Source: a virus
Length of the DNA stretch: 64,000 nucleotides
Strand: one strand, 5' to 3'
IMG/VR virus record: IMGVR_UViG_3300025168_000038
Span: 44,144 to 108,143 of that record
Part shown: in pieces, positions 2,850 to 49,300 of the stretch
Position numbering within the stretch: position 1 is the first letter of the stretch
How the letters are laid out: each line of letters begins with the position of its first letter
Translations under genes and position numbers: made by a program
Notes under the pieces: model-generated
What the model saw: the letters and a program-made list of their open reading frames with translations, nothing else
The model's database searches: none
Told to the model about the DNA's origin: nothing

Positions 2850-3293
2850 TTATTTTTTACGTCCACTTGATCTGTTACCAGAATAAGCTCTTTTACCTGC
2901 AGCTTTTTTAGCTCCTTTACTTTCATCTCTTCTAGACTTCATAGATTGTTTCTTCTTTCCGTTTCTCATTCCTAAAGACTCATTTAATCTAGAATTGTAA
3001 CCCTGCTTTTTCTTTTTCTTTTTAACAGCTCCACCTTTTTTCATCATTCCTTGTACAGGATCTAATACTGAACCACCATTATCTTTAAACATTTCTAAAC
3101 CACCAGCTGCAGCCATTGTATCCATAGCCATAGCTTGTGGAGTAAGATCTCTCATTCCATCAATTGATGATGTAAAGCCTCCCATTCCGGTTCCTCCCAT
3201 ATCATATCTTTTCATGTTATTTACTTTTTTCTTTTTTTTCTTTGCTGAAGAGCTTCCACCTATTTTGTAAGCATTTCTCATATTGTTTGGCAT
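2850..3293 (-). CDS. Lys/Met-rich low-complexity protein with repeated xxxGG motifs
   Basis: 147 aa; poly-Lys runs; YKIGG, YDMGG, KDNGG, MKKGG motifs. Confidence 0.7.
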   Translation of the reverse strand: MPNNMRNAYKIGGSSSAKKKKKKVNNMKRYDMGGTGMGGFTSSIDGMRDLTPQAMAMDTMAAAGGLEMFKDNGGSVLDPVQGMMKKGGAVKKKKKKQGYNSRLNESLGMRNGKKKQSMKSRRDESKGAKKAAGKRAYSGNRSSGRKK

Positions 3294-29900: not shown

Positions 29901-32900
29901 TTAATTATTTTTTGATTCTTTGCTTTTTGCTGTATAAGCTGCGTCATTGTTTATTTTTTGCTTAGATAATATACCTAATACATAATCATAATATTCATCA
30001 TAACCCGTTTTGTTTTCTTGCTCACCACCTAATATTGTTGAAATTGGCTCTTGTCTATAACCTTTAGGAAATTTAGTAGCATCAGATTCATAATGATTCA
30101 AATAACCATTTACATTTATTCTACCACCAACTTTCTGGAAACTAAAAGAACCGTGTCCAGCATTACCTGCAAAATATGGTGCAGCATAAGCAGATGGATC
30201 AATTGTAAGTATGTTATTATTTGTGCTAGCAATTCTTTTCTCTAATGTAGTATTACTTTGTGTAACATCATAACCTAATGGGTTTGCTTTTATAGTAGAG
30301 CTTCTAGGAAATATATATGTAAATCCTGATCTTAAAACTTCAGTTACATCACTTGCATCCACATCTGCAGGATAAACTGAATTATCTTTATCTGTTAATG
30401 CTTTTATTAACTCTTGAGAAAAATTACTTAATTCATATGCAGCGTAAGGTTCATTTTGTAGTTCACCTGTCTTATCTCTTATCTCTGGACCATAGCTATC
30501 ATAAAAAGTTAATCTCATTGCTAGTTTATCTGCACCTAAGCTTTGTTCATTTGTTATTCTATCATAAATATACATAGCAGCTTTACTTTTAGTGCTTGAT
30601 ACATCCATAGCATCAGCTGTTAAAATATCTACAAAATCATCACTGTCTTCTGAACCTATTGTTGTACCTATAAAACCATAGTTACCACTTCCGCTTGCTT
30701 TATTAGAATTAATTTGTGCATAAAAATCACCTAAAAATTTATTTTGTGTTGATCCAGCTTTTGGTGCCAATGTTAAGTCTGATGAGTTTGCTACATCAAA
30801 TCTTATATTACTAGCTGGTATAGCACCCAGTCCTTGACTGTTATTCATAAATGTTCTAGAAGGAGTAGTTGACATTAATTTGTTTATGTCTGCTTTAAAT
30901 CTTTTATATATTTTTCCTAAATTCTTATCTAATTGATTTTCATCAAAAGCAGTTACAAACTTATATGGACTAGAAAACTTATCATTACCATATCTAGACA
31001 TCATGTCCAATTCATCTTGTGACTTTAACACTTGTTTGGTAGTCATTAAATCATCATTATTGAAAATACCATAAAAGTCAATTGTTTTATTTGGGTCTAT
31101 ATCACCTGATTGAATACGTGCCATGTTAGCATCCTTAAACTGCTCCTCAGTCATAATGCTTTTAGAATCATTGTCTATTGGAAAAATATATCCATTCTCT
31201 AGTAATAAATGAATATTTTTTTCTGCAGGAGTAAGGTCCTTTTTATTAGTATTTGATAAAGCAAGTTCAATTAATCTTGCTTTGTCATATTGATCTTTCA
31301 TAGCTAGATCTACAGCAGTATTATAAAGTTCAATCTGTGTTGATAAACCAGGAGTTGTTATGCTTGTTCCACTATTAAATAGTTTATTACTTATAGACAT
31401 AAATGGACTATTAGGAGATGTATCAATACCATTTGCATGTGCACCTGTTGCATCAGTATAATATTTTTGTAAATCACCAAATAAAGATTCTATACCGTTT
31501 GCATATTGATAATTGTCTGTTTCTAATTGATCATCATCTAATTGTCTATTGCTTAATTTTTTAACAACATCTTGTAAGTTAGCGGTGTAATAATCTTCTG
31601 GTTGATTTGGATCAGGGTTTTCAACTAAAGGAACAGTATAAAAACCAGGTCTATCAGGAACATCATATAAACCAGAACCTGCTATCATCTCTTCTAACAT
31701 ACCTAAACGTTCAGTTAAAAGTTCATTACCACGTTCTTGTATTGCAATGACGTCCATTTCAAGTGGGTTGTCTGTTCCAACAAAATTATTATTTTTATCT
31801 ACAGCAAAAGTTGCACCAAGACCTTTTACATCTTGTACAGTGTTTCTCATCTGTTGTGCATAATCTATTCCTCCAAGTTCCATTAGTTTTAAGGATTGAT
31901 CTCTTTTATACTTTATAGTAGCTGCATCAGCATCTATTTCGGCTTTTTGTACTTGTAGATTCCATTTATTTGTATACTTAAGATTTTCTAATTCAAAGTT
32001 ATTTTGTTCTTGAGTCACTTCCATCTCTCTCATACTAAATTGTCTAGCAGCTTTACGTACATCTGTATCAATATTGTAATTAGATAAAAGAGCCATTGCT
32101 TTATTAAACAATGCTTCATCATCAGGATCAGATGTAGCAGCAAACTGATTAAGTTTAAATAGCCTATCTAAATCAATCTTCATTCTTTCTGCATCACTCA
32201 AGTTTTGATTTTTAATATTCTCATCTAAACTGCCAGGAACTATACCATGATTAGCTGCATAATTATCCCAGTTTACATTTACTTCATTTTGCTTTCTTAA
32301 TTCATATTCTTTTTTTGTTTGGTATTCAAGATTCTTGTTTTCTATTCTAGAAATTTGTTCTGAAGCCCAAGCATTTAGCCCTTCTTGTTCTGTTGCAAAC
32401 ACACCTTTGCCAACCATAGTTTCAGCAAAGTCATAAGCTTGTACGTAAGACTTAGCATTATAAAACTTTTGCACTCTTGGATCATCTATTAAAGCAGACA
32501 TAATCTGTTCATAAGCAGGTCCTTCTACTAAGCTTCCATTTTTTTGTGTTATTATAAAATTCTTATCTTCCATTAGGATAGGGTTTCCTTGTCCATCTAC
32601 TTTACCTGTATCTTTGATGTTTGGTATAGGTAAAGATATAGTTAATCCAGGATCTAATTCTGATAAATATTTTTGTGCATTTTGCACTAAATCAGCATCT
32701 AAAATTAATTCAGGAAGCGGTTGACTTTGTAATTCACCTCTTCCAGCTTCCATAAACTTTCTTCTATCTATTTCAAGTTTACGTAAACTTACTTCACTAT
32801 TTGCTAACTCTCTTGTTTCTTGATTATTACTTGATGCTAAATTCTGGTATTTTTTTATAGCATCATTATATGATCCAGTCCATACCATATCATACACTAC

Positions 32901-33212
32901 TTCATCATCCTCAAAAAATGGTGCAAATGCTGACTTAGCAGCTTGTACATTTTGTTCTAAAGAAAGATCCATACCAGATATTTTTTCTAGTGATGGTCCT
33001 AATTTTTCAGCATATTGTCTTTGATACTCTAAGCTGTTTGGGTTAGTAAGTGGTGAATATACAACTTTATTATATAAATCATTCTGTGCTTTCCACCCTG
33101 CATCATATTTAGCCTGACGTGCATCTAATGTAGCAGACAAAAATTTATAGTCTGGTGTAAATGGTTTTATGTCTGGGTAAAAATTCTTTTGTCCTTTAAT
33201 GTATGTTGCCAT
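29901..33212 (-). CDS. Putative ejected virion cargo protein (1103 aa)
   Basis: Large helical/coiled-coil ORF directly upstream of vRNAP; position matches crAss cargo genes. Confidence 0.55.
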   Translation of the reverse strand: MATYIKGQKNFYPDIKPFTPDYKFLSATLDARQAKYDAGWKAQNDLYNKVVYSPLTNPNSLEYQRQYAEKLGPSLEKISGMDLSLEQNVQAAKSAFAPFFEDDEVVYDMVWTGSYNDAIKKYQNLASSNNQETRELANSEVSLRKLEIDRRKFMEAGRGELQSQPLPELILDADLVQNAQKYLSELDPGLTISLPIPNIKDTGKVDGQGNPILMEDKNFIITQKNGSLVEGPAYEQIMSALIDDPRVQKFYNAKSYVQAYDFAETMVGKGVFATEQEGLNAWASEQISRIENKNLEYQTKKEYELRKQNEVNVNWDNYAANHGIVPGSLDENIKNQNLSDAERMKIDLDRLFKLNQFAATSDPDDEALFNKAMALLSNYNIDTDVRKAARQFSMREMEVTQEQNNFELENLKYTNKWNLQVQKAEIDADAATIKYKRDQSLKLMELGGIDYAQQMRNTVQDVKGLGATFAVDKNNNFVGTDNPLEMDVIAIQERGNELLTERLGMLEEMIAGSGLYDVPDRPGFYTVPLVENPDPNQPEDYYTANLQDVVKKLSNRQLDDDQLETDNYQYANGIESLFGDLQKYYTDATGAHANGIDTSPNSPFMSISNKLFNSGTSITTPGLSTQIELYNTAVDLAMKDQYDKARLIELALSNTNKKDLTPAEKNIHLLLENGYIFPIDNDSKSIMTEEQFKDANMARIQSGDIDPNKTIDFYGIFNNDDLMTTKQVLKSQDELDMMSRYGNDKFSSPYKFVTAFDENQLDKNLGKIYKRFKADINKLMSTTPSRTFMNNSQGLGAIPASNIRFDVANSSDLTLAPKAGSTQNKFLGDFYAQINSNKASGSGNYGFIGTTIGSEDSDDFVDILTADAMDVSSTKSKAAMYIYDRITNEQSLGADKLAMRLTFYDSYGPEIRDKTGELQNEPYAAYELSNFSQELIKALTDKDNSVYPADVDASDVTEVLRSGFTYIFPRSSTIKANPLGYDVTQSNTTLEKRIASTNNNILTIDPSAYAAPYFAGNAGHGSFSFQKVGGRINVNGYLNHYESDATKFPKGYRQEPISTILGGEQENKTGYDEYYDYVLGILSKQKINNDAAYTAKSKESKNN

Positions 33213-33271: not shown

Positions 33272-36076
33272 TTAACGCCCCATCTTTCCTACTGTCATCC
33301 AGTATGGGTATGCTGTACGTTTAAGTTTAGTCATGCCTCCTTTTTTTGCAGTAGGTTGATTCACATCTGTTCTTACGCTTGGTACATTATATTGCTCAAA
33401 AGGATTATCATCATCTTTATTTGCATTCTTCTTACTATTCTCTCCCATAATAAGTTGTATATAATCTATTTTATTTTTTTCATCTTTTACTCCTTGTTCA
33501 TCTGCTTTGTTCCATAACCTAAGTACTTCCTCTTCTCTTTTCTCACTTTCAGTTCTTTGATCTGTTTTTGCATTTGGATTATTAGTAGAATCAGTAAATG
33601 TATTTAAACCATATAGTTCAGGTCTAATTTGGAATTCAGGAGATTTGGTTTTATTAAGGTTAGAAGTATTGGCCATATTAGTTTGCATAGTGTTCCACAA
33701 CTCATTACTTTTAATAGTATCCCAGTTCTTAAAGTCAGTAAACCTTTGTAAAGCTAAATTAGTACCTTCATCTTGTAACTCTCTTTGTTTCATATTAAAC
33801 TGATTGTTTCTCATGTTTAAATCAGCATTTACTCTTCCAGCTTGATTAATAATGTTAATGTTATTTGTATTAGTCTTATTAATAGCATCCTCACTTAAAG
33901 CTACAGCTTTACCAAAGTCTGATCCAGCTACTGCACCTCTACCAAAAGCTTTCATAGCATCTAGCTTAGAATTTAAAGCTGCATTAATATTATTTACTTT
34001 ACCTGTCCAGTCATCTAAAGCTATATCTAATTGTACTGGTGGTGCTTGTCCTAATACTGGTAATATTAAAGGATTATCTAATCTATTTTGTGCTGCTATA
34101 TTATTAACATCTTGCATCCATGGCATAGGTCTTTCAGGAACAAATTCATCATTTAATTTAGGATCTGGAGTATCAGCAGGATCATCTAATGAACCAATTA
34201 TAGTATTAGCTTGAGGATTAGCAAGATACCTTCTGTCTATATTATATGTATGTAAACCTAATACACCATCTATATTAGTTCCCCCTCTATCACCAGCAAA
34301 TAAATTTCTAGGTTCTAAACCATGTTTTTCAGAAAACTCATTATCTAACCTTTGCATATTTTCTTGAACAGTAGTCCATTGTTTTGTATACGCTGGATTT
34401 TTTCTTCCTGCTGCTCTATCTGCTTCATTCAAATATAAAGGTGTATTATAATCAAAACCTTCTTCAGGTATAGCATCACCCCATCTTAATTCAAAATCTT
34501 CTTGAAACTTTGGGTCAGATAAATCTGCACCTGCGCTCATTTGTCCTGCAGAACTCTGTTGCTCAGGTCTATTACCTCCAGAAGCTATACCTCTTCTTAC
34601 TTTAACTTGTGGATAACCCTCTAACGTAGCTATAACTTCATTATCATTATCTGTATATATAGGAGTTTCACCTGTTCCAGAAGTAGTTACTGTTACTTGT
34701 TGTGATTCTTTAATTTCATCTAATGGATTTGGTTCCTTTTCAACTAATGTAAACTCTCTTCTTTTTTTAACAGCATCATAATATTCATTTATACTTATAA
34801 CATTGCCTCTATCTATAGCATCTGCAAACTGTTGATAATTAGGGTGTCCTTCTGGAAAAGGGTTATCATCCTTACCATATACTTTAACATCTTCTGTTTC
34901 ATTAACAACTACATTATTACCATTCTCAGTAACCTCTTCCTCTATACTTTCTCTTATAGATAAATCTCCTTGAAATCTTTCTTTATTAATTTCAAAATCT
35001 AATGGATCATAATCTTTTATATCTATTAAAGCTTTACCATATAAAAGCTTTTCTTCATCAGTTAACATTTCAACAAATTTTTGATCAACTTTACCTTGCA
35101 TATTTATATGCATACCTCCTCTAATTCTACCTTCTATATATTGTTCTCTGCTTACATTTTGTCCATTAAGCTTATAATTTGTAGTTTTCTCATTATTACC
35201 TTCTTGAGCTTTATCTAATTCAGTACCATACATTGCCATTTGTTCTACTGGTCCTACATTACCTTGTGGATTGCCTTCTTGTGGTTGTTCTTGATCTTGC
35301 ATCTGAGCCATCATCTCTTGTAGCATAATTACTTGTGCTTGTTGTTCCGGAGGTAAACTAGCTATTGCATTTAGCTCTGCTTGTTTTTTAGTAATGTCTT
35401 CTACTTGTGCAGTAAATTTAATAGGGTCTATACCCTTTTCAGTTAAATAAGGATATGCGGCTAAAGGTACACCTTCTTCAAAATTCTTTTTAAGTTCTTG
35501 ACCAAATGCTAATTTAGACAAGTTACCCATATTCTTTTTAAGCATAAGCTCAGCACTTGTAGTAGATATATCATCTGCATACTGATCATTAATAGCTGCT
35601 AAATATGGATTGAGCTGATACTTTTTAGATATGTTAGCTGGTGTTTTTCTTTTTCCTGTCTCTATACCAAACTCAGCCATCTCATCTTTATTAAACTTCA
35701 TTTTGTTTGTATCTGAATAAATAAATGATTGTTCTGGTAAAAACATAGGCACGCCTCCACCTGTATGTCTTGGTCCATTAATATCATATAAACCAAACTG
35801 ACCATTACTATTTAAATCAGCCAATACTGTTTCTCCACCTTCTGCTTCAACATTAGCATCTTCTCTTGGTACACCTGTTAAACTATATCTAACATCACTA
35901 TCTAAACTATTATTAAAATTAGTAGATCCATAATACTCTTGAGGAGTTGTAACTAAACCATAATCAGCTTGATCTCCTGTAACATACCCACCATCTTTTT
36001 TAACTTCAGTTTTTTTAAGTTTTCCATCAACTAATTCAAAACCATCAGGTAATTTATTTATCTTTATTTTTGCCAT
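33272..36076 (-). CDS. Putative cargo protein (934 aa)
   Basis: NVEAEGGET...GPRHTGGGVP domain; KKDGG, KAQEG, AKKGG motifs; Gln/Asn-rich coiled C-terminal half. Confidence 0.6.
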   Translation of the reverse strand: MAKIKINKLPDGFELVDGKLKKTEVKKDGGYVTGDQADYGLVTTPQEYYGSTNFNNSLDSDVRYSLTGVPREDANVEAEGGETVLADLNSNGQFGLYDINGPRHTGGGVPMFLPEQSFIYSDTNKMKFNKDEMAEFGIETGKRKTPANISKKYQLNPYLAAINDQYADDISTTSAELMLKKNMGNLSKLAFGQELKKNFEEGVPLAAYPYLTEKGIDPIKFTAQVEDITKKQAELNAIASLPPEQQAQVIMLQEMMAQMQDQEQPQEGNPQGNVGPVEQMAMYGTELDKAQEGNNEKTTNYKLNGQNVSREQYIEGRIRGGMHINMQGKVDQKFVEMLTDEEKLLYGKALIDIKDYDPLDFEINKERFQGDLSIRESIEEEVTENGNNVVVNETEDVKVYGKDDNPFPEGHPNYQQFADAIDRGNVISINEYYDAVKKRREFTLVEKEPNPLDEIKESQQVTVTTSGTGETPIYTDNDNEVIATLEGYPQVKVRRGIASGGNRPEQQSSAGQMSAGADLSDPKFQEDFELRWGDAIPEEGFDYNTPLYLNEADRAAGRKNPAYTKQWTTVQENMQRLDNEFSEKHGLEPRNLFAGDRGGTNIDGVLGLHTYNIDRRYLANPQANTIIGSLDDPADTPDPKLNDEFVPERPMPWMQDVNNIAAQNRLDNPLILPVLGQAPPVQLDIALDDWTGKVNNINAALNSKLDAMKAFGRGAVAGSDFGKAVALSEDAINKTNTNNINIINQAGRVNADLNMRNNQFNMKQRELQDEGTNLALQRFTDFKNWDTIKSNELWNTMQTNMANTSNLNKTKSPEFQIRPELYGLNTFTDSTNNPNAKTDQRTESEKREEEVLRLWNKADEQGVKDEKNKIDYIQLIMGENSKKNANKDDDNPFEQYNVPSVRTDVNQPTAKKGGMTKLKRTAYPYWMTVGKMGR

Positions 36077-36078
36077 AA

Positions 36079-38604
36079 TTATAAAATTTCTATATCAGCT
36101 CCTGCTGCTATTAATTGTATTAGTAAGTCCTGATCTACATCCATTATATCTCCACCCATTTGATTTTTTGGTATGGTCATAAATGATACACCACTCATGT
36201 TAAAAGGATCATTAGGTATAATATCAAAAATATTATTGTAATCTACATTACCATCAAATCCGGCATCATACATTTTATTATTAAGTGCACGTCTTCTACC
36301 TGCAGGATTTGGGGAATAAGACCCACTACTAATAATAGTGTCATTATCACTATTGAAACCATGATTTTTTATCATATTTTCAATAATACTTTTTGTTTCT
36401 TTCTTGCTAAAATTACCACCTGCATTATTAAATGCTTTTTTATACTCTTTATTACCATCTTCTGCTTTAGCCATTTCTCTTTTAATAACTCTATCTCTGT
36501 TTGCTAAGTATGCTGCCTCACCACCTTCTTTTGCTTTATCTTGTTCAGCTATTGCTGCTTTGATAACTCTATCTCTATTAGCTAAATAGCTTTCTTCACC
36601 GCCACTAGCCATATTGCTAAGTATATTATGCTGTGCTTCTGGTGGTAAAGCTTTAAATCCATCATTGTTCACTCCTCCTCCTTTTTTACTAAACTGAGTT
36701 GTCATAAAAGGATTAAACGTAGCTTCATCTAAACCTACTACTCTGTCCTTTGTACTTCTTAACATGCCTGTATTTGTTTTGTAGTTACCTTTTGAACCAG
36801 GAGCATCAGTTACAACACTTGCCCAATTGTCTGCCATAAACATATCTTGCCTGTCTTCCTTGGCTTTTTCTTGATTTATTCTATTATAAATATTATCATT
36901 AGCAAAACTAGCAGCATCTACACCTACTTTTGATAAACTTGTTCCTATTCTAAAAAATGGATTGTCACCTATTTCAGTTAACATTCCAGCTAAGCTATTT
37001 GTCCTTTCTGATTCAGGCATATTTATTTTGCTATATACATCAGCTGCTGTTTGTACATTATTTACAGCTCCTTCTGTTGACGCATCTGCAATAACTGGAT
37101 CTACTTCTTCCATTCCTTCTGCATTAGAAGTGGTGTAGTTAGCCATATCAAAAGGAGTTCCGTCAGAAAGAAATTCTAAAACTTCACTTTCTTCTTCTGT
37201 AAAAGGACCTCCGCCCCCTTCTTGTAATTTTGGATATGTTTTATTATAAGATTCTAAATATTGATCATATAATTTTTGATTAAAATCACTACCCATCATT
37301 TTATTATTTTTGTCTAAACCAATAGATTGAAAATATGATTCTTGATCCATCAACTCTGGAACTATACCTGATGCTTCAGAAATATTATTATCATAATCAG
37401 ATTTTAATTTTCTTTGTTTTTCTTCTTCTTCAGCTAATGTTAAAGCTTTGTAATCTTCTATATTCTTAAGATTTTCATCTGATAAATCATATGTTGTTTT
37501 TTTACCATAGTATAAAGGACTAGCAGTACTAGCATAATCTACTTTATCTTTTAATCCGGCAAAAGCACCTTTTTTTAAATTATTCTCACCAACCTCTTTA
37601 CTAAATAACTCTTGGTTTATATCACTAGCTAAACCTAAACCTTCTAATAGTATATTACCTTCAGGGTTTATATTTTGAAAAAAGTCTCCCATGTTATAAC
37701 TATTATTAGCCACAGGTTTAGAATACTGCGTTGGATTATCTATAAACATTCCAATTTCATCTCCTGTTGCTTTACTACCATACCACTCCATAAAACTTCT
37801 TGGCTCACCACCATAATCTCTAAACCTTGAGTCTAAAGTATATTTTCTGTTAGGAGGATTATAAGAGCCTTCTCTTTGTCTTACACCTTCTGTATAATCC
37901 ATTCCTCCTCCATTTCCAGCAAGATGGATATAACCCTTTTCACCTAATTCAAGATGTTGGTCATGTGTCATAGCCATTACACCATCATCTCCTTTATACA
38001 TCATGTGTGGTTTAAACTCACCACCCTCTTCTTTTTTCCAACCAGCTGCATTCTTTGCAAAATTAGCCATCTTAACTACAGACGTAGGGTATGCATCAGT
38101 ATTGTCCATAACTTTATTATATGCTTCTGAAACACTCATACCACGTGCTTTAGCCCATCTAGTAAACTTACCTCTATTCTCTGGTTCAATTTCTATTCCT
38201 GATTTAGCAAAACCAGGTATTGTATCTTGTTTAGGTTTACTGCTTTCTAATGCTTCATTTCTAGCTAAAAGCTGAGGACTAGAATTAACTTCTTCTGGAC
38301 TAGATGGCCCAGGAGGTTGTGCTTTTACACTTACTTGTTGAAACAAAGTCATTATATCTTCTTGTTGCATACCACCCATCATAAGTGCTTGTGCAATAAC
38401 TTGTTGATCAACTTGTTGTTGTGAAAGTTCTAAGACTATATCAACTATATCCTTACCTTGATTTACTGAAGAAGATATTATTTCTGTAACTTGTTGAATC
38501 ATAGGATCCACTACAGGCTGCTGATTACTCATAGCTGGTTGACTAGGAATCATTGCACCGCCTTGTTGTTTTACACTTTTTTTGTTTAATTTCACTTTGC
38601 TCAT
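36079..38604 (-). CDS. Putative cargo polyprotein (841 aa) of short modules
   Basis: About 11 xxxG(G) motifs separating short segments; internal duplication YLANRDRVIK. Confidence 0.6.
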   Translation of the reverse strand: MSKVKLNKKSVKQQGGAMIPSQPAMSNQQPVVDPMIQQVTEIISSSVNQGKDIVDIVLELSQQQVDQQVIAQALMMGGMQQEDIMTLFQQVSVKAQPPGPSSPEEVNSSPQLLARNEALESSKPKQDTIPGFAKSGIEIEPENRGKFTRWAKARGMSVSEAYNKVMDNTDAYPTSVVKMANFAKNAAGWKKEEGGEFKPHMMYKGDDGVMAMTHDQHLELGEKGYIHLAGNGGGMDYTEGVRQREGSYNPPNRKYTLDSRFRDYGGEPRSFMEWYGSKATGDEIGMFIDNPTQYSKPVANNSYNMGDFFQNINPEGNILLEGLGLASDINQELFSKEVGENNLKKGAFAGLKDKVDYASTASPLYYGKKTTYDLSDENLKNIEDYKALTLAEEEEKQRKLKSDYDNNISEASGIVPELMDQESYFQSIGLDKNNKMMGSDFNQKLYDQYLESYNKTYPKLQEGGGGPFTEEESEVLEFLSDGTPFDMANYTTSNAEGMEEVDPVIADASTEGAVNNVQTAADVYSKINMPESERTNSLAGMLTEIGDNPFFRIGTSLSKVGVDAASFANDNIYNRINQEKAKEDRQDMFMADNWASVVTDAPGSKGNYKTNTGMLRSTKDRVVGLDEATFNPFMTTQFSKKGGGVNNDGFKALPPEAQHNILSNMASGGEESYLANRDRVIKAAIAEQDKAKEGGEAAYLANRDRVIKREMAKAEDGNKEYKKAFNNAGGNFSKKETKSIIENMIKNHGFNSDNDTIISSGSYSPNPAGRRRALNNKMYDAGFDGNVDYNNIFDIIPNDPFNMSGVSFMTIPKNQMGGDIMDVDQDLLIQLIAAGADIEIL

Positions 38605-38611
38605 ATTATAT

Positions 38612-38627
38612 TATTAATATACAAATA
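38612..38627 (-). promoter_or_regulatory. Phage promoter motif copy
   Basis: TATTAATATACAAATA just upstream of the 841-aa gene ATG. Confidence 0.5.
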
Positions 38628-38667
38628 ATTAAGGAGATTCACTAATATTTAAGGTTTAACAATCATC

Positions 38668-41600
38668 CTAAAGATGCGTCATTATATAGTTTGGTACACT
38701 CATACCCATTCTCCTTGCATCATTTAAATGTATTCTATTTAGTTTATCATATATATTATTGGCTTCCTGACTTTTTACTTTTCCGTTAATATAGTTCTTA
38801 TAAGTATTTAACATCTCTGACTCACCACCTTTTTTATATGGTAGTAAATCTTCTAAACTAAATTGTAAAAAACCTGTTTTACCTAATTCCTTTTTTGCTG
38901 CTTCCATGCTATTTGCAAAACTTTTTCTATTGCCTTTTTTAGAAACATTCTTATGCCCTTTTAACCATACATCTGCCATTGATAATTTACCATCTGCATA
39001 GTCTTTTAATACAGCTGGAGATTCAATTAAATTAGCAAAGAATAATGTATACTGATCTTTTGCACTTAAATCTAGTGCACTTTCTGCATTAAGTATATTT
39101 TCATTAAGTGTATATTTTATTCCTGTTTTTTTACCAGCTGCTTCAGCAACATTTTTATATCTTGTTTTTGCAGTATCAAAAGATTCTGGTTCAAACTGAA
39201 ACATTCCTCTTCCTAAGCCGTCTTTTTCTCCATCTTTGGTAATCTGTCTAGCTAGAGGGTTCATTCTTTGCTGGGGACCAGATTCATGAAAAGCTATATT
39301 ATCAGCTAAATCTGTCCATGTTTTTTCATTACCCCCTCTACTCTCAACCATATAATCTATAATATTAGTAAGACCTAATACTTGATTATTTTTTTTATTT
39401 TGTTCATCTTCACTTACAATAATTTGAGATCTAGAAGGTATAAAACCACCATCTTGTTCTTGTGATAGTGCTGTACTAGCTCCAACAACAGGAATAGCAG
39501 CAGGTAATTTATTTAAAGCTCTAGAAAGAATCTCTCTGTTTTTTGCTGTTTTCTCATATAAATCTAATACTCTTGTGTTACTTAAAAAACCTGAGTTCTT
39601 TCCACCACGATCCCACCCATAATCATAAAAACCTCTAGGTTTATTAGCAAAACTAACTTCAGCTTGTATAAGTTTATTTGGTGTTATCTTATCATAAATA
39701 TTTTTTATAATACCTCTATCTAACATTGATTGTCTTAGTTCAGCTAAATATGATGTAGGTTCCTGACCACTACTTCCTTCTTTAAAATATTCCCATTGAG
39801 CTTTTCCTGTTTTACTTAAATTTGCAGATGGGGTAAGTTTTCTAGCATAATCATCCAAAGGCATTTTTCTTCCTGCTTGTAATAAGTGGTTTAGTTCATG
39901 TACTTCCACAGGTGCATTATTTGAATATTTCATACCTGTAGTCACTTTGCCTGGAATAGATTCTTTGCCTAAACGTTTTAGATTAATTACCATATTTGGG
40001 TCTGCAAGATATTTATTATATAATTCATCTGGAAATGGCATTTCCACTCCTGTTACAGGATCTAAATATTTTTTAGGAACAAAATCACCTGTCTCATATA
40101 CTGCTTTTCTTGGTGCGTTTTGAAACCAAGCGTTAAAATATAATCCATCATTATTCTTAAATAATTCTCTAGCTATATTATGATTAACATGTTTAGGATC
40201 ACCTATTGCATCTTTCCACATTGCTAATGCATTATCATTAATAGTATTTCCTTTAGCTGATACTAACTCGTTATATCTTGCTAATGCATTTCTTTCTGCA
40301 AAAACTTTATTATATGGTTGTCCAACTGATTGAAGATATTTAGCTTCTGCTTCAACTAATCTTTCAAAACCTTCTGAGCCAGGTTTTAAATCATTTAATC
40401 TTTTTTGTATGGTAGCTCTAAAACTATCTGCACCTGCAGCTAACTGTTGTAAAGGCTTTTGTAAATTTGAACCTTCTGGCATAATATCTGCACCACCTCT
40501 ACCTATGTGAGGCGGCCTTACACCTTTAACTGGTGTAATATCATCTAAATTTCTTGGTGTATTACCTGAATATTTTTTTACTTGATCTTTAATAAGACTA
40601 GGTGCTTTAGGGTTTATAAGTTTATTAATCATCTTAGGAAGCTCACCAATTTTAGCTCTAGACAACCAAGCAGGTATAACAGGTATAGCACCTAAAGCAT
40701 TTAATGAACCTGATAAAATTTCACCTTCTTCAAAATCTCTTTTAGAATTTTCAGCATACTGTGCCCATGCAAATGGGTTAAAAACATCAACAAGCATATC
40801 TAAATTATTTCTTTCAGGATTAGAAACATTTAATCCTTTAGGAATAGGTTCATTACGTGCACTATAACCAAATGCTGTAAAAGGGCTAGCTAATTTATCA
40901 GCAAAATTTTTGTAATCAAAAATCTCTTTTTGAAATAAATTCTCATCACCTTGTCTAAACTCATATCCTTGTTGAGCCATTACAGGTTGATTAGGATTAT
41001 TTTCTTGTACTAACTCATTAAAGTATATTTTCATTTTTCTTTCTACTTCAGGTCTTAAATCATTTATATCATTTTCAAGTCCTTTTCTATAATCAATAAT
41101 TGATTTTTGATCAGCTATATTTTGTATATTATCAACACCTTCAACAAACTCTAATGCTTTATTATATTTTTTACCTCTTTTTGTTTTACTATTTTTAAGT
41201 AAATATTTAGCATTTTGATAAGGTGATTTATCTCCATAAGGACCATCCTCAAATGAATATCTTTTATTATCCTGTAACCATGAATCATAAAAAGAATCTT
41301 GTTCATCAAAAGTACTAACATTATATCCTTCATCATATACATCTCTTAGTTTACGCTTATTATCATTTTTATCAAAGTTCTTTAAATCATTCATCATACC
41401 TTTAAGATTGCTAAACTCCATACTTTGAAAATGCAATTGTGCCTCACTATTATTTGGTACTAATTTTTCATTAGTATTCAACATTTTTTCAAACTGACTT
41501 GAGCCAAATTTTTCTTTATTATAATCCCAAATTCCTTCATCTAATAATCTACCTTCTGTTTCTGCTTTAGCTGAGCTTATTTCTGCAGGCATACCAGCAT

Positions 41601-43374
41601 GCATATTAAAATCTTTAAAGTTCTCTTTACCAAATAAATCTTCATACACTTTTAATAAACTTCCCTCAGCATTATAATGTCCCATATTAGTACGGTATTT
41701 TTGTTTACCATCTACTGTTACTCTATTAGTTGGATCATCAATCATATCATCAAATAAAGGACTGGTGTTTGTATTATAACTATGAGCCAATTCATGACGT
41801 AATAAACCTTTTAAAGGATCTCCATAATTAGTTCTTATATTTCCAGAGTTGTCGTATTGTAAACCAATAGAATAAGGGTAATTATAAGCATCTTTAGATA
41901 TTATATCTGATGCTAATTTTCTATCATCTCCATATTGAAATGGTCTAGTCTCAAATGAAGCAATTGCGTTATCTCTTTTAATTTGAGTACTGTCTCCTGA
42001 ACCATCACCATAATATGGACTATATGTAGTTGCTTCATTCTCTGATCCCGTATATGGATAAACTATAGCATTATCTGATCCTGCATTTGTAAAATCTATT
42101 TGATTTTTAACATTCTTTTTAGCCACTTCAATATCTATATCTTTTCCAGTAACATGCTTATAGTTTGCTACATATCTATTTAAAAAAGTTTCACTATTTA
42201 ATTTATTAATTAGTTCTTCTTTTTCTTCTTTAATAGGATAAGATCCAAGATTACCCATTTGTCCTTTAGGTAATGTTTTAACTTTACCATTCTTAGTTCT
42301 AGCATATCTATTGTTTTCATTTTCCATGCTAGGAATAAGTGTGCCTGAGTATGATTTACCTTTCCAATTCCAACTTACTGAGCCACCTCCTTTTTGAGCC
42401 TTTGGAATATATTCTCCTGAATCTTTATTTTCTTCTACATATATTCTATCATATATTTCAAAAGGTTTTACTATATTCTCTGTATCAACTCCTCTAAAAT
42501 CATATTTATCATAAATAGATAAATATTTTTCCTTTCTTTCATTATCATATCCCCATTGAAGTTGAAACCCTTGTAGTGGGTCTCTTCCATAAAAATCATC
42601 TGCATCCATAAAGTCATCTTTAATAAACCTAGATAATCCTTCTACAAATTTTTTCTTTCCTTCAGTTTTATTATCATCTCCTTTGTCATAATCACCCATG
42701 TGTTTTATTAATTTATTCCAATCTATAACATCTGGATTTAATTTTACATATTTATCATTAGGATTCTTTGCATCAGAAGGCATATATTCTGAAGGAATAA
42801 AATACTTTGCATCATTTGGAAGACCTAATGCCTTTGCCCATGCTTCCTCATCTATACTATAACTACCATCCTTATCTAATACAGGTGGTTTACCTTCTTT
42901 ACCAAAATAATCTCTCCATCCTGCACCAGCTAAACCAGATATACTTGGATACCCTTCAGGCCTAATTTGCTCAAAAAGCAGTCGTTTCATATTTGCATCA
43001 TTCACATCATTTGAATACATATTATTATACAAACTATTAGCTGCATTTACCATCAAAGCATTGTCACTACGACTTCTATCTACAACCCTTTCTCCAACAT
43101 TACCTTCCTGAGCCATAGGTATTTCAAATACTTGATCTCCTGGAAACTCATAATTCATACCTGGTTGCATCATTTGTGAGTTGCCTAAGTTATCTGTACC
43201 TAGTACAGGAAACTCCACATCTTCCATAGTAATACTTCCTGACTCAATAATGTTAAAAGGATTATCTACATCAGGACTATTAAACTTATACCCCTCTATA
43301 GATAAATATTCTGATATATCAGTAATATATTCATTTGGTCCTCCTGGTAATCCTATGCTTTTTTTATTTGCCAT
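38668..43374 (-). CDS. Multidomain cargo polyprotein (1568 aa): two HExxH zincin-like domains and a lysozyme/transglycosylase-like domain
   Basis: HELAH (41782-41796), HELNH (39886-39900), IAFHES...GRGMFQF (about 39190-39300). Confidence 0.65.
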   Translation of the reverse strand: MANKKSIGLPGGPNEYITDISEYLSIEGYKFNSPDVDNPFNIIESGSITMEDVEFPVLGTDNLGNSQMMQPGMNYEFPGDQVFEIPMAQEGNVGERVVDRSRSDNALMVNAANSLYNNMYSNDVNDANMKRLLFEQIRPEGYPSISGLAGAGWRDYFGKEGKPPVLDKDGSYSIDEEAWAKALGLPNDAKYFIPSEYMPSDAKNPNDKYVKLNPDVIDWNKLIKHMGDYDKGDDNKTEGKKKFVEGLSRFIKDDFMDADDFYGRDPLQGFQLQWGYDNERKEKYLSIYDKYDFRGVDTENIVKPFEIYDRIYVEENKDSGEYIPKAQKGGGSVSWNWKGKSYSGTLIPSMENENNRYARTKNGKVKTLPKGQMGNLGSYPIKEEKEELINKLNSETFLNRYVANYKHVTGKDIDIEVAKKNVKNQIDFTNAGSDNAIVYPYTGSENEATTYSPYYGDGSGDSTQIKRDNAIASFETRPFQYGDDRKLASDIISKDAYNYPYSIGLQYDNSGNIRTNYGDPLKGLLRHELAHSYNTNTSPLFDDMIDDPTNRVTVDGKQKYRTNMGHYNAEGSLLKVYEDLFGKENFKDFNMHAGMPAEISSAKAETEGRLLDEGIWDYNKEKFGSSQFEKMLNTNEKLVPNNSEAQLHFQSMEFSNLKGMMNDLKNFDKNDNKRKLRDVYDEGYNVSTFDEQDSFYDSWLQDNKRYSFEDGPYGDKSPYQNAKYLLKNSKTKRGKKYNKALEFVEGVDNIQNIADQKSIIDYRKGLENDINDLRPEVERKMKIYFNELVQENNPNQPVMAQQGYEFRQGDENLFQKEIFDYKNFADKLASPFTAFGYSARNEPIPKGLNVSNPERNNLDMLVDVFNPFAWAQYAENSKRDFEEGEILSGSLNALGAIPVIPAWLSRAKIGELPKMINKLINPKAPSLIKDQVKKYSGNTPRNLDDITPVKGVRPPHIGRGGADIMPEGSNLQKPLQQLAAGADSFRATIQKRLNDLKPGSEGFERLVEAEAKYLQSVGQPYNKVFAERNALARYNELVSAKGNTINDNALAMWKDAIGDPKHVNHNIARELFKNNDGLYFNAWFQNAPRKAVYETGDFVPKKYLDPVTGVEMPFPDELYNKYLADPNMVINLKRLGKESIPGKVTTGMKYSNNAPVEVHELNHLLQAGRKMPLDDYARKLTPSANLSKTGKAQWEYFKEGSSGQEPTSYLAELRQSMLDRGIIKNIYDKITPNKLIQAEVSFANKPRGFYDYGWDRGGKNSGFLSNTRVLDLYEKTAKNREILSRALNKLPAAIPVVGASTALSQEQDGGFIPSRSQIIVSEDEQNKKNNQVLGLTNIIDYMVESRGGNEKTWTDLADNIAFHESGPQQRMNPLARQITKDGEKDGLGRGMFQFEPESFDTAKTRYKNVAEAAGKKTGIKYTLNENILNAESALDLSAKDQYTLFFANLIESPAVLKDYADGKLSMADVWLKGHKNVSKKGNRKSFANSMEAAKKELGKTGFLQFSLEDLLPYKKGGESEMLNTYKNYINGKVKSQEANNIYDKLNRIHLNDARRMGMSVPNYIMTHL

Positions 43375-43380
43375 ATTTAA

Positions 43381-46300
43381 TTATCTTTGAGACAGGTTTA
43401 ATTTAGTATTGTTTAATCTTAACAACATCTTTCTATTATTAGATTGCATTCTTCTTAGCAATACGTGATTAGAATAATGTCTAAACTTCTTACGTTGTGT
43501 TTCAGGCTTGTTGTAATTTAAGTTAATACTATTAAGTGTTCTTACATAACCATTACATGACGTTGACCATACAGGTTGTTCAGCATTTGTAAATTCACCT
43601 CTATCATTTGTTATATCCCAAAATTGGTTTAATCTAAATTTATGTTCTACTTTGTCTGCTAATACATTTATATTTTGTGAACCTATAATTGGATAAGTTA
43701 ATTCATTCCATGGGTTATTATAAGGTGACATATTTAATAATAATAATCCTGAAACTTGTTCATTGTTATATATTGTAGCTTGATCAAAATTAAAGTTCAA
43801 ATCTTCATATGCATCACCACCACATGCATTATCCATAGTACCTTTATAAACATAAGTTTCTAATTGGTATTCTATGCTTCTTATTGTATTTACTGCTTGT
43901 CCTGTATTACTAATAAGATCTATCTCCCATGGATAATCAGTTCCATAAAAATTACTAAACAAATCACATCTAACGTTGTGTCTCCAAAAAGAACTTACAT
44001 TATAGTTTGGAGGGGTCTGTACTAAAGTATTGTAATTACATAAAGCTGGATCAGGATCTACCCATGCTGGATCCCCTATAGAATATATTTCTGGTGGAGT
44101 ATCAGGACATGTGCCGCCTGATGGAGGTGGTATTAGGGTTCCATTAGTATCACAACTGCATTCTACTTTTCTACAAATAGGTGGTGTACCTGCTTGATTA
44201 GCAGCATCACAATCATCTGTGGCAGAAGTCAGTGAGTTATAGAAACCTGTAGCAGGATCTAAAAATACTTTTGTATATCCAGCTGGACATGTACAAACAA
44301 ATGGTACTGAGCATACATTACCAGCTATGGTTTCTGCAGCTAATGTTAAACTAGCAGCATCATTTGCTGCCATTATTACTTGTGCTGAACTTGGTGTACT
44401 AGTAGAAATATTATATGTTGTATTAGTAGCAGCATTTAATACAATTGGGCTTTGCGGAACTGAAAATTGTCCTCCTTGATTTGGTGGTGCTAAAGGAGCA
44501 CAAAATACAGAATATATTTCTTGCTTAAATTCACTTTGTAAAGTTGGTTCATTTTGTGCCCAACTTCCAGTATTATTTGGTATAATAGATGGAGGTATAG
44601 AATAAAATGAAGGCTGCCCTTGATTACCTTGATTATATCCAGCTGTAAATGCAGGATCTAATCCTACAGAAGTTTGAGTAAAATTTGAACTTTGACTTAT
44701 TCCTGTCATATATAAATCACCACCATAACCATTTGCTACTACGTTTCCATCAGTAATAACAATCATTATTTGTTTAAAAAATGAATCTAATGATCTTGCA
44801 GGATAAGCACTTGCACCTAATTCACTTTGATTTTTCTTATTTAAACAATTAAGACCAGTCTCTACGTTAAATTGATTTTCAGGAGCTACACCTGAAATAT
44901 TAAAATTAGCATTTCCTCCACCACTTACTGGTCCAAGACCCGTTCCTACTGACAAACGTGTCTCGTCATTTTCCCAGTTTTTATAATAAAATGCAATTAT
45001 TTCACATACATCACAATTATGCTTCATAGTATAAATACCACCTTGCAACAAACGGAATGTATGTGTAGACCATGCAGTAAAACCTATTTGCATTGTTTCT
45101 GCAGCTAATTGTGCTACAACGCCAGGATCAGTTAAAAATGAATATAAAAATTTTAATTGTGCGTTACCTCTATCGGCTAATCCTCCAGGTGAGTTACCAG
45201 GCCCTTGAGGAAAAGTAAATGATCCATATGATAAACCAGCACATTCAATTGGAATCCAATTAAGATTAGTTAAAAGACCACCTGTTGTACTACCTGAAAC
45301 ATCCATAGAAAAAACTAGATCTAATAAACAATCTGTAGAACCACCTGTAATTGTTGCAGCTAATTCACTTACATCAACATTAGAAGGAGCATTAAAATTA
45401 GATCCCTGTTCACACAACCCTGTTGTAGGATTAAAATTATAACCCGGAGGACATTGTGGAATAGTTGTAGTTGTTGTCTTAGTAGTAAAGAAATGATTTA
45501 TACTTGGTAAAGATAATTCAGGATGCCAGTCATGGAATGAAATCCATGCTTTAGTTTTTGGATCATAACTTATAGTCCATGAACAATCATCAAAATATAT
45601 TGGGTCTCCTAAAGTAATAACAACACCATCAGCTGCTGTAGCTCCTGTGTTCAATATAAATCCTTCAGAAAGATTAAATGAAACTGTAGCTATGTGTTCT
45701 TTTTTTACTTTATAATCTCTTTTCATAAAATAGACTATATCATCATTAGCATCATATACTGTTTGACATCCAATACCTGCAACCGGATTATCAGCCAAAG
45801 GTGAATTCTCTAAATCAGGAAACTGTTTAATTAATGATGATGGTAAATACTCACTAAACCAATACTTCATACCTTGATTAGATATAGGTGTAAGTCCTTT
45901 ACCAGGAGCATATTGAAATATTTTACCTTGTGCTTGTGATATATAAAATAATCCAGCAGGTGTGTTCATTACACTTCTTAAACTTTCACATGATCCATAT
46001 TCATTAGATACATCTGCATTGGCAATATTTTGAAAAGGCTGGCTAAACAATCCTCCATCACCAATTGTCAACTTAGTATCAGTCATTGTTTTAAGCTGAT
46101 CTACACCTTGAAAAAGTTGTGGAGATAAAAATGGAAAAAATACTACAGCTCCACTTTTACTAAATGGTTTAATTACACTAACTTCACCTTTAAAGTCTTT
46201 GTAATTAAATGGTAAAAATACTCTCCAAAAATCTTTTTTTAGTTCATTCTGTGCTTGTAATGAATAGATTAATCTTTTAGGATAAATAGTAAAACAAGTC

Positions 46301-49300
46301 TCTGCAACAGTAGGGTCATAACTTCTTGATTGTATTTGACCAAATGTAGTTATCTGTGATTGAAACTTTGCAGGTGTTAATGATTCATCATACTTATAGT
46401 AATTGTCAAACTTTTGAATCTCTGCATGAAATAGTTCTACTAAGTCATTGTATTTATAAATATCATAAAATCTTTTTTCTTTTGGTTCTTCATAATCTCT
46501 ATACGCTATATTAATTTCTGTCTCTACAAAGAAATCATTTATACCGTTAACGTGAGTATACATATAAGCATGAACCATACTAAATGCGTCATTTAAATCA
46601 TCACCTTGAAAAAGAGATCCAAATATATCAGATACACCACAAGTATTTTCACCTCTATCTAAATAAAATAAATCTTTAGGTAGAACTGGACCTGAACCAG
46701 GTAACAAAGCAGATAAACCTGCTGTAGAAATAACTTCTGCTAATCCAGAAATATCATACTTCCTTGTATCCATCCAAAATCTTGGGTAAGGTAAATTTAC
46801 TCTTAAACTATAATCATATGGAAAACCATCATATTGACCCATCATAAAATCAGTAAATATTGGCATAATACATTTTTCAGTATATCTACCTATAAAAACA
46901 TCACCACTAAAAATTGGATCTGTTGTATACATAAATGTATCAGGAAGTGTTGGATCAAGATGTGCAACACAACCTCTCATTTGTATTTGTTTGATGCCTT
47001 CTAATTGACCATATTGATTGCTCATATTGAACTTAAGGGCACCATACATTGCTGATATATTTTCTTTAAACGGACCTTCAGGATTTAATAATCTTTCATT
47101 AGAATTGCTAGGGTCAACACCATTACCTGCATCATTAATAAATCCACCTGCAACAAATCTTGATCTATCAGTAACACTGTAATTAGAATCAAAAGGATCA
47201 CTAGTAGATACAGCAACATAATCTGGTCTAAATAAATTATTTATTTTATATTTATTATTATCAAATGTTTGAAAAGATGAACCTAAATAATTAGATGCTT
47301 CTGTGTTACTTCTAAATCTGTTATCATAACCAAGTGGATTAAACCCACTATAAAAACCATGTGAGTTATACTTTAAAGCATGCTGTTGAAATGAAATCAT
47401 ATTATATATCAAGTCTACTACTTCTTGACCACCTATTGCAATATTTTTTTGAGTTAATAAAAACCCTATAGCTATTCTTATAGGTTTAGGTAAATTTGAA
47501 TCTGGTGAATCTCTAACAACACCTTGTTGTGCACCACCACCCATAAAACCATCTCCAAATGCTTGTGCTTGATCTATATTTTCTATTGCTAAATCATTTA
47601 TTTCATCGGTTGTAGATTTACCTGAAACAAAATCAGTTATGCTATTCCATGTATTATTTAAAAATTGAGAAACTTGTTGCCATATATTTCCTCCAATACC
47701 TGAACCAGTTACATTATTGTAATAATCTTGAATGTTATCTCCAGCTCCAGTATATGCATTACTGCCCTTTTCATTATTATCACCATCTATTTCTCCACCA
47801 CTTCTATTATTTAAATTTACTGTTGCAAGACCAGGTGGTACTGTTAAACTAACAAATCCACCACCTCCTTTTTGTTCTTCACCTTTTATTTTCCATTCTG
47901 GAAAAGCATTGTTAATAGCTTGTACAGGCATTGCTCTTGTATCAGGAGTTCCTTGAATTTGCCTAATAGAATAACCAAGACCTACAAACCCAGCTAACAT
48001 TGCAGCAAGTCCTCTTAATAATTTTTGCCCCGGATGATTTTCAGATGAAATAAAACCACCTGAAGATGCACCATTTATTTCTCCATAAATTTTAGTTTCA
48101 TTAGCATTTAAAAAAGGCCTAGTAAACATTAAATCTGGGGAATGAAAAGAAAATACATCTTCCGTATAACCACTTAATGCAGGATATGAACTTACAGATT
48201 GTGCTATACCATCGTCACAATCTTCTGTTCTATCTTGAGAAAAATAAACATCATCTCTTAAATCATTATATGGATAGTTAGCATAAAGTCCTTGTATGCT
48301 TCCACCTATTAAATTTTCATTATCTGGTACATCATACTTACGCATGTTTTTAAACATACCTTTTGCTAAAATACTTTTAGCTCCAAGTCTTGAACCTCTT
48401 AATATTTCATAACCAACTACATTTGGTATATAAGTTATACCATCATTTAATAATGGTCTACCTATATTGCTAAATTCTACACCAAGTATATTTATACTAT
48501 CTCCTGCATCTTCAGTTAAATGTAACTGATTACCTCCACTTTGTTCAGAAGGCATTTTATGATGCCTAATATATTCTCCACAAAGGCTACCCCATATTTC
48601 TGGTCTGTTAGGATATCTTTCTGTTGATTGCCAGTATCCCATATCCCCTTTGGCAATTATAGTTGTCTCATCACTAAGTTGAATATTCACTGGTTGAGTT
48701 ACTACTCCTGTATTATATATTTCAAATAAATATTCTTCTGTTCCCAATACATTGATGGAATTAGAAGAAGTTATTAAGTCATCTTCAGCAATAACCAAAC
48801 CATTTGGCAATGTATAATCTTGAGGTGGTCTACCAGGTATGTGATAAGATGAAGACCTTTCTCCTGTATTATATATCCATCTTATGAAAAATGCATATTG
48901 TTCATCACGCATAAATCCTAGTTTGTTTCCTGCTTTATTATAATAATTACTAGGAACTTTATTTACAACAAATTTAGTTATTATATTATTTGCAATAGGT
49001 TGATAATTAAAATCAAATTGCTCAGATGGTCCTTGTCTTATTAACCAATCATTTACTACAAACATAGATTGTGACTTCTCATATGAAGGAGAAATATAAA
49101 ATAAATTCTCTGCACTTTCAGACACTAATGATGGATCAATAAAGTCTATACTTATATCAGTTATTTCTGTACTATACAGTCCAATTATTTTTCTAAATAA
49201 CTGTCCTTGATTTCTTATTAATAGTGTTAACTGAAAATTATCAAATCTTTTATCTAGATTGGATATAGTTATATCCAAACCACATGCGTTATCAGAATGG

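Follow-up and report, generated by a model that had tools for sequence, protein, structure and literature searches.

The window analysed here is the whole 64,000-nucleotide stretch of IMG/VR virus record IMGVR_UViG_3300025168_000038 (positions 44,144 to 108,143). It forms the right-hand 64 kb of a phage genome that consists of a single contig of 108,143 bp, with a G+C content of about 31%. The phage is a marine crAss-like podophage, and three adjacent minus-strand open reading frames (ORFs) of the window, lying where the first-pass annotation had placed them, probably encode cargo (ejection) proteins. As read from their sequences and those of their relatives, each of these proteins is a bead string of exchangeable modules with one conserved glycine-glycine tag per joint and per leader or tail boundary, and evolution swaps the modules exactly at the tags. 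We propose this tagged modular architecture with high confidence. The three proteins, whose lengths are given in amino acids (aa), are named as follows:

38668..43374, minus strand: P0001, predicted polyvalent cargo protein of 1568 aa in seven segments, with tags at residues 91, 329, 374, 803, 1309 and 1516 and an LPGG at 11-12.
36079..38604, minus strand: P0002, predicted cargo protein of 841 aa, a leader plus about 11 tagged segments, many of only 20-60 aa.
33272..36076, minus strand: P0003, predicted cargo protein of 934 aa, with a leader (1-30), a conserved N-domain (31-125), a variable middle after KAQEGN (294) and a C-tail after TAKKGG (914).

The first-pass annotation had counted about 20 occurrences of a motif approximating [KMFY][AKQ][QEK]xG[GN] in these genes. 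All 21 of the peptides it listed exist, each at its implied position, but the strict pattern matches only six, so that the count hinges on a loose definition of the motif. Enrichment is nevertheless strong whichever definition is tried. The strict pattern occurs six times in the three cargo proteins and twice in the other 86 ORFs, with a shuffle mean of 0.34 and none of 2000 shuffles reaching six; [KQE][KQED]GG occurs 10 times in the 3,343 aa of the cargo proteins and four times in the remaining 30,814 aa (shuffle mean 1.14; 0 of 2000); [MK][AG]QxG occurs five times against once in other ORFs. The 4387-, 1958- and 1929-aa proteins have no match to the tag patterns. These patterns were picked post hoc, after inspection of the same three proteins; since they derive from the cargo proteins themselves, 120 database homologues of P0002 served as an independent check, and there two patterns gave 481 matches against 42 expected and 220 against 12. 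Comparison with shuffled controls, which the first-pass annotation had named as a test of its proposal, thus bears the enrichment out, in the homologues as well.

A position table of 650 non-redundant GG sites displayed L at -6, P at -5, K at -4 and -3, Q at -2 (fourfold enriched) and E at +1, often with a further LPKAQ shortly downstream. The full tag of the relatives is [Y/K]-x-GG-x-LPKAQ-x-G, here mostly reduced to PKAQxG[G/N] or [K/Y]xxGG, and we read the tag as [hydrophobic]-P-[K/M]-A-Q-x-G-[G/N]-[E/D] in its full form, with [K/Y/Q]-x-x-G-G as the degenerate one. Relatives also present a second flavour, GG-WL[DN]KY-x-x-GG, at times fused to LPKAQ, and 16 proteins among them have a natural C-terminus that is exactly GG-WLxKY. 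The tag spans about 8-12 residues, and two distinct pentapeptides are conserved in it among the relatives. A genome-specific flavour is not clear among four marine relatives; Bacteroides phage crAss001 alone differs. The tag is apparently undescribed: the literature searched held no description of it, nor of cleavage of crAss cargo proteins.

Synonymous codon choice at 20 tags follows general usage, which argues for selection on the peptide and not on the DNA. GGT GGT GAG occurs at four of the five GG-E joints (38824-38841, 38020-38037, 37807-37821, 36520-36537), GAG making up 24% of the Glu codons in these genes. The run may be a minor DNA-level trace of a common origin, or a coincidence (about 0.003 if independent).

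That the motifs fall at module boundaries, a further test named by the first-pass annotation, is seen in all three proteins, whose homology blocks break at the tags. In P0001, with 99 relatives and 363 internal BLAST endpoints, 55% of the endpoints lie within 8 aa of a motif against 6.6% expected, and the six largest endpoint piles are the six motif sites at residues 91, 329, 374, 803, 1309 and 1516. P0002 has endpoint piles at 15, 194, 232, 265, 465, 645, 670, 694, 716 and 813, all of them GG sites, the weaker listed ones included, and P0003 has a pile at 290-300, on KAQEGN. The off-tag breaks of P0001 at residues 900-950 arise because a separate module, NP-x-TAFGY...NPFAW-x-QY, lies there; it is about 100 aa long (P0001 residues ~815-935, positions ~40570-40930), sits between the two HExxH regions described below and is found alone in dozens of large proteins of a representative library. 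An alignment of ten relatives of P0002 has mini-modules present, absent, duplicated or moved (EFKPHMMY...GYxH, MDYTEGVRQREGSYNPP, GSVSWNWKGKSYSG and the YLANRDRVIK helix). The earlier idea of a plug-and-play packaged cargo with conserved short N-leaders and C-tails, its exchange points marked by the motif, is therefore supported by the homology blocks of the relatives and by the gene slot. Gene fission at tags has no clear case in four related loci. In one related contig (L005:10001-12660) the P0002-like gene is divided between two ORFs, of 188 and 705 aa, with a 25-nt overlap; this division is off-tag and is probably a frameshift or an assembly error.

The segments of P0001, delimited by these tags, are:

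43102..43374, minus strand: residues 1-91, constant N-module ending in the tag PMAQEGN, near-invariant in the alignment of relatives.
42253..42387, minus strand: residues 330-374, mini-module GSVSWNWKGKSYSG...KTLPKGQMG, with a tag on each side.
40960..42249, minus strand: residues 376-805, first HExxH region (HELAH at 527), with a conserved HExxH and Glu.
39439..40032, minus strand: residues 1115-1312, core of the second HExxH domain (HELNH at 1159), with a hydrophobic Gly/Ala segment behind it that leads to the tag QEQDGG.
38827..39444, minus strand: residues 1311-1516, muralytic-like module (IAFHESG...GMFQFE), with a PHROG match and a sub-threshold Pfam match.
38671..38826, minus strand: residues 1517-1568, conserved C-tail after the tag PYKKGG, placed by the ends of high-scoring segment pairs (HSPs).

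In nearly all relatives of P0001 the first 91 aa and the final ~50 residues are retained, while the middle is swapped. At the N-module, 88 HSPs start at residue 1, 67 end in the bin 90-99 and the endpoint cluster centred on residue 95 holds 80; at the C-tail, 79 HSPs reach the C-terminus, 28 start in the bin 1510-1519 and the cluster centred on residue 1507 holds 55. The swapped modules of the relatives match the Pfam families SLT, ART-PolyVal, LysM, YkuD, PG_binding_1 and Pkinase. The GSVSWNWKGKSYSG...KTLPKGQMG mini-module is also found inside P0002 relatives (P0066, P0073 and P0083), and therefore moves between cargo proteins. With two HExxH regions and a muralytic-like module in one polypeptide, P0001 is a polyvalent protein as defined by Iyer et al. 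2017. The muralytic-like module matched phrog_3108 with an E-value of 7.7e-4 and Pfam Phage_lysozyme2 with one of 0.019, below the cut-off of that family, and several relatives contain SLT (PF01464). Pfam and PHROGs scans of five giant proteins gave almost nothing.

In the first HExxH region, residues H152, E153, H156, E223 and E232 are invariant in 11 sequences, and an AlphaFold2 (AF2) model built with these 11 sequences had a predicted local distance difference test score (pLDDT) of 43 and was unusable. In the second domain, 34 diverse sequences conserve H45, E46 and H49 to at least 90%, with E91 and E98 invariant; its AF2 model reached a pLDDT of 78, with a core above 90 and a tag tail below 50 (predicted disordered), and places the HExxH in a helix and the conserved Glu in following helices. 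LNKLPA follows this domain in nearly every one of the 34 diverse proteins, with a hydrophobic Gly/Ala stretch and then the tag coming next. This stretch (P0001 residues ~1285-1310, positions 39445-39520, and the 34 relatives) is 12-20 aa long and resembles the predicted glycine-zipper membrane segment of the crAss001 protein gp45 (residues 136-158). Comparison of the second domain with zincins returned nothing in Foldseek and, in VIA, matches up to Z 3.6 with a few zincins among unrelated helical proteins; the zincin matches (3dl1, 2l0r, 4l7a and 2di4, Z 2.4-3.5) are too weak to count. Searches of the PDB sequences with profiles of the two HExxH regions gave no match, Pfam MPTase-PolyVal (PF18818) had none in the genome, and tblastn of P0001 and of its zincin core found none in 50,697 phage records; P0001 has no match in cultured phages.

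P0002 carries the shortest modules:

38557..38604, minus strand: residues 1-16, basic leader MSKVKLNKKSVKQQGG, conserved in relatives.
38020..38196, minus strand: residues 137-195, KGKFT...MANFAKNA module, common to crAss001 gp45, with tags on both sides in both phages.
37912..38019, minus strand: residues 196-231, EFKPHMMY...H...GYxH mini-module, present or absent among relatives and not in Pfam.
36454..36597, minus strand: residues 670-717, two tandem GGE-x-x-YLANRDRVIK-helix copies, each tag-flanked, as seen in the alignment.
36082..36150, minus strand: residues 819-841, C-tail ...LIAAGADIEIL after IPKNQMGG, kept in relatives with differing preceding modules.

The copy number of the GGE-x-x-YLANRDRVIK helix ranges in the aligned relatives from no clear copy to three. 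The EFKPHMMY mini-module (EFKPHMMY-x-TGK-x-K-x-T-x-x-H-x-x-x-K-x-GY-x-H) has 35 aa and three conserved His. Highly basic small proteins that consist of little else also carry it as a stand-alone unit, as do further proteins of numerous marine phage contigs, most of them far smaller, which have this module alone in common with the present phage; in some such proteins it is flanked by KYEEGGK, MKEGGKA or MEKGGKA. The leaders of the cargo proteins run in parallel: MSKVKLNKKSVKQQGG in P0002, MAKIKINK...KKDGG in P0003, MANKKSIGLPGG in P0001 and MAKKKIKRRGKMPPNIFDTGG in gp45 of crAss001.

The gene slot of the three proteins can be compared with that of crAss001, whose cargo protein C1 is gp45 (Bayfield et al. 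2023, PDB 7qog and others; PMC10172136). The neighbouring genes are:

43381..50040, minus strand: muzzle-like virion protein of 2219 aa, upstream neighbour of the cargo genes, with PHROG matches and a weak gp44 match.
29901..33212, minus strand: 1103-aa protein without a tag array, at the same place in relatives.
16728..29891, minus strand: predicted virion RNA polymerase (RNAP) fusion of 4387 aa, with the crAss-type DFDID at residue 3514 and HEAFH at 2046, tag-free.

The gene order thus runs from the muzzle-like gene through P0001, P0002 and P0003 to the 1103-aa protein and the 4387-aa protein with DFDID, and it is identical in four related marine virus contigs. The 2219-aa protein matches phrog_37948 and phrog_15100, both annotated 'virion structural protein', and its BLASTP match to the crAss001 muzzle gp44 is weak and collinear (residues 25-159 with 5-148 and 1344-1443 with 1116-1200; E 0.001); the portal of this phage is a clear PHROG match. 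By this order, P0001-P0003 take the position that the cargo proteins gp45 and gp46 have in crAss001, with the muzzle gene on one side and the RNA polymerase genes on the other.

Like the cargo proteins of the window, gp45 lies between muzzle and RNAP genes and has a basic N-leader ending in GG, and it has one module in common with P0002 (residues 132-190 against gp45 369-423, BLASTP E 2e-5, with tblastn matches in gut crAss phages), flanked by GG tags in both phages. It differs in that its tags are aromatic-GG (A[FY]GG, GGWLNTQGG) rather than PKAQxGG, located at 209, 263, 332, 373, 427 and 562, and in that crAss001 has one protein instead of three, gp45 being without enzyme modules. The P0003 family profile gave no match to gp45.

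Two pieces of gp45 are resolved by cryo-electron microscopy: residues 214-245 on the tail rings R1/R2, lining the tail barrel, and, within the capsid, residues 425-552 on the portal wing (PMC10172136). Each is bounded by tags, and the portal separates the two. The crAss001 structure paper does not mention tags or processing (PMC10172136). The tag NAFGGWLNTQGG (424-435), of the GG-WL[DN]KY flavour, falls inside the continuously modelled 425-552 segment. The peptide is thus ordered in the virion and serves elsewhere as a natural C-terminus, which suits a handle better than a scissile site; as the C-terminus of 16 proteins, GG-WLxKY works without any downstream part to remove. We also re-analysed the 2018 peak lists of the crAss001 virion gel by peptide-mass fingerprinting. 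Bands 3-9 were assigned to gp47+gp50, gp49, portal gp20, gp26+gp22, gp22+gp25, gp25 and gp23, respectively, and gp45 (90.8 kDa, with about 12 copies like the portal) stayed at decoy level in all stored bands, from 70 to >300 kDa, a weak test given that gp45 yields only 23 tryptic peptides of 7-25 residues, roughly the range of matrix-assisted laser desorption/ionization, and that bands 10-13 (58-15 kDa) lie outside the stored data. The indirect crAss001 data therefore conflict, with an ordered, uncut tag on one side and no full-length gp45 in the gel bands on the other.

The first-pass annotation had taken the tags as cleavage sites by analogy with core precursors of African swine fever virus (ASFV) and adenovirus. 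PHROGs and Pfam scans of about 35 ORFs (the plus-strand ORFs scanned in part) detected no prohead or clan-CE-like maturation protease, and the only peptidase-like matches were the Peptidase_S74 fibre chaperone and a DUF2201_N ORF. The analogy therefore has no clan-CE-type or prohead protease behind it, and proteolysis of the motif, on which no literature was found either, is not borne out. The claim that the protease is not in the window calls for a qualification: HExxH...E regions exist there, two in P0001 and one in the 4387-aa protein. An in-cis zincin as processing protease was rejected: neither zincin type is present in 62 of the 99 P0001 relatives, and 48 have no HExxH at all, yet these are equally tag-rich (85 against 24.5 expected; 68 against 6.6). 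Because relatives lacking HExxH stay as tag-rich, the zincins are dispensable payload and not a dedicated protease. Nor did the idea of cutting to an ejectable size hold, since the 4387-aa RNA polymerase is tag-free and the crAss001 RNAP subunits of 150-277 kDa are intact on the gel; with untagged giant RNA polymerase proteins carried whole, size is no reason to cut.

We lean, tentatively, towards an uncut tag that acts as universal joint and docking handle, an exposed flexible peptide which, we infer, is read by one partner common to the three cargo proteins. With the Gly-Gly hinges, adjacent modules would be free to fold and dock on their own and the chain to stretch out as it threads. The conserved pentapeptide (LPKAQ here, WLDKY in relatives, WLNTQ in crAss001) would stick either to a neighbouring module or to a site that recurs in the portal or tail lumen. 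Whatever payload stands between two tags would thereby be packed and then drawn out via the tail. A host peptidase might also trim the short N-leader, in the way known for P22 gp7. Such a role needs no protease. Several points weigh against it. A plain hinge leaves the conservation of K-A-Q unexplained, the tags flank modules of 20-50 aa and tandem copies of one peptide, a layout typical of cleaved precursors, and no tag-binding partner was identified. Uncut gp45 would need 12 chains to span about 420 A through the portal with 179 linking residues, as the authors of the structure propose (PMC10172136); about 50 of these 179 form the conserved module, and the remaining residues would therefore be almost fully extended. 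Finally, gp45 is at decoy level in the very bands where the equally abundant portal appears.

The principal alternative, quite possible although we give it less than even confidence, takes the tags as endoproteolytic maturation sites: the polyproteins would be cut at or next to the tag by a host peptidase or an unrecognised phage protease, during or after packaging, removing the N-leaders and releasing enzymes plus many 20-60-aa peptides inside the particle. A tag at every joint, including around tiny and tandem-repeated peptides and after leaders of 11-30 aa, is what such a process would use; the tags lie in predicted disorder, the EFKPHMMY module exists stand-alone in other phages, and processing of polyvalent proteins was predicted by Iyer et al. 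2017 (PMC5512222). In P22, a podophage without prohead protease, the 20-aa leader of gp7 is cut by host OpdA directly before KGGKGG. The gp45 pieces on both sides of the portal, a tail lumen holding only about residues 1-245 of 12 gp45 copies (PMC10172136) and the absence of gp45 from the 70-300 kDa bands are also consistent with cutting, and if the tags are truly cut, the presence of gp45 in both capsid and tail would be explained. Against this stand the scans without a protease, the dispensable zincin modules, the crAss001 tag modelled as a continuous chain in virions and the WLDKY-type tag at natural C-termini. Moreover, a tag of about 8-12 residues with two pentapeptides in relatives exceeds what a cut site needs, ejection does not require cutting, and the gel evidence is weakened by the few gp45 peptides and the missing bands. 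In its general form, that crAss-like phages, for which no maturation protease is known, turn C1-type and polyvalent cargo into enzymes and dozens of small peptides through a tag-directed host peptidase or unrecognised phage protease, the proposal likewise has less than even confidence.

It is improbable that the tag has no reader at all and is simply a favoured Gly-rich linker, recombinants surviving only when broken in linkers. Domains are often joined by Gly-Gly linkers, and homology breakpoints will gather in a linker of any kind between domains. However, the non-glycine residues (P at -5, K at -4/-3, Q at -2, E at +1) are conserved across distant relatives, three unrelated proteins carry the tag, which also follows the zincin domain in nearly all of the 34 diverse proteins, and other giant multidomain proteins of this phage go without it. 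A variant in which the tag is a DNA-level recombination signal finds a point in its favour in GGT GGT GAG at four of the five GG-E joints, though GAG is the rarer Glu codon; it was rejected, as the codons at the tags otherwise vary freely. Less probable still are modification or cross-linking sites, the conserved Lys and Gln of the tag being methylated or isopeptide-joined so as to tie the cargo together: no transglutaminase-like gene was seen, degenerate tags are without K or Q, and no result of this analysis supports it.

Other genes of the phage were noted along the way:

2850..3293, minus strand: Lys-rich protein of 147 aa with six GG, four of them tag-like.

The first-pass annotation had counted four motifs in this basic protein; the four tag-like sites do exist (YKIGG, YDMGG, KDNGG and MKKGG), but about three GG are expected from composition, so that its link to the tag system is weak. 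The 1958-aa Gly-rich fibre protein (57877-63753) ends in a Peptidase_S74 self-cleaving intramolecular chaperone and has a BppL_N motif; it is unconnected to the tags. A single Cys lies five residues from the end of the 4387-aa protein (...KKCNL, window 16728-16760), and the 1929-aa protein of the next gene (start 16700-16725) has a single Cys at residue 4 (MAKCPNK). Outside the window and outside the minus-strand late genes, a 387-aa protein (genome 27059-29498, plus strand) combines the Pfam DUF2201_N putative metallopeptidase (HELLH) with a VWA-like DUF2201 domain, and an adjoining 422-aa ORF has a P-loop-like GESGIGKT in its translation.

Crassvirales are among the most abundant gut phages and common in the sea, and they load and deliver megadaltons of protein. 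If true, a universal packing tag would account for how quickly injected effectors turn over (peptidoglycan enzymes, ADP-ribosyltransferases, kinases, zincin-like domains) and would offer a handle for loading foreign proteins into phage particles. Should the tag instead be a cut site, it would represent the first maturation proteolysis in Crassvirales and alter the reading of the crAss001 structure with its cargo on both sides of the portal. New here are the tags mapped onto that structure, the gel re-analysis, the dispensability of the zincins, the WLDKY-type tag at natural C-termini and the P22 gp7 parallel.

Among the closest known systems, besides gp45, are the polyvalent proteins of phages and conjugative elements, which often contain a zincin-like HExxH domain (Iyer, Burroughs, Anand, de Souza and Aravind 2017; PMC5512222). 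As in that system, many unrelated domains would be packaged and injected in one polypeptide, and relatives include ART-PolyVal, SLT, LysM, YkuD and kinase domains, whereas the conserved inter-domain tag has no counterpart described there (PMC5512222) and MPTase-PolyVal is unmatched here. In the relatives of P0001, the tags persist without zincins. With the maturation systems of adenovirus, ASFV, T4 and phiKZ, the cargo proteins share a short recurring motif at module boundaries. Adenovirus adenain and ASFV pS273R cut at Gly-Gly-X, T4 gp21 and phiKZ gp175 at x-x-Glu, and the T4 internal proteins lose their leaders after targeting while small peptides are kept in the capsid. Dedicated proteases and mapped product ends are known in those systems, whereas the scans of about 35 ORFs of the present phage gave no such protease. 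In P22, gp7 is cut by OpdA between ...SYPE and KGGKGGADK (gene 7, L043:1370-1519), and the mature ejection protein starts with a Lys-Gly-Gly repeat; this is a single N-terminal cut, in a protein without internal tags or modular payload. Encapsulin cargo-loading peptides, for their part, are short, contain Gly, lie on flexible linkers and dock any cargo inside an HK97-fold shell, usually as one peptide at one end of the cargo, whereas the tags of P0001-P0003 are repeated along the chain and their docking is putative.

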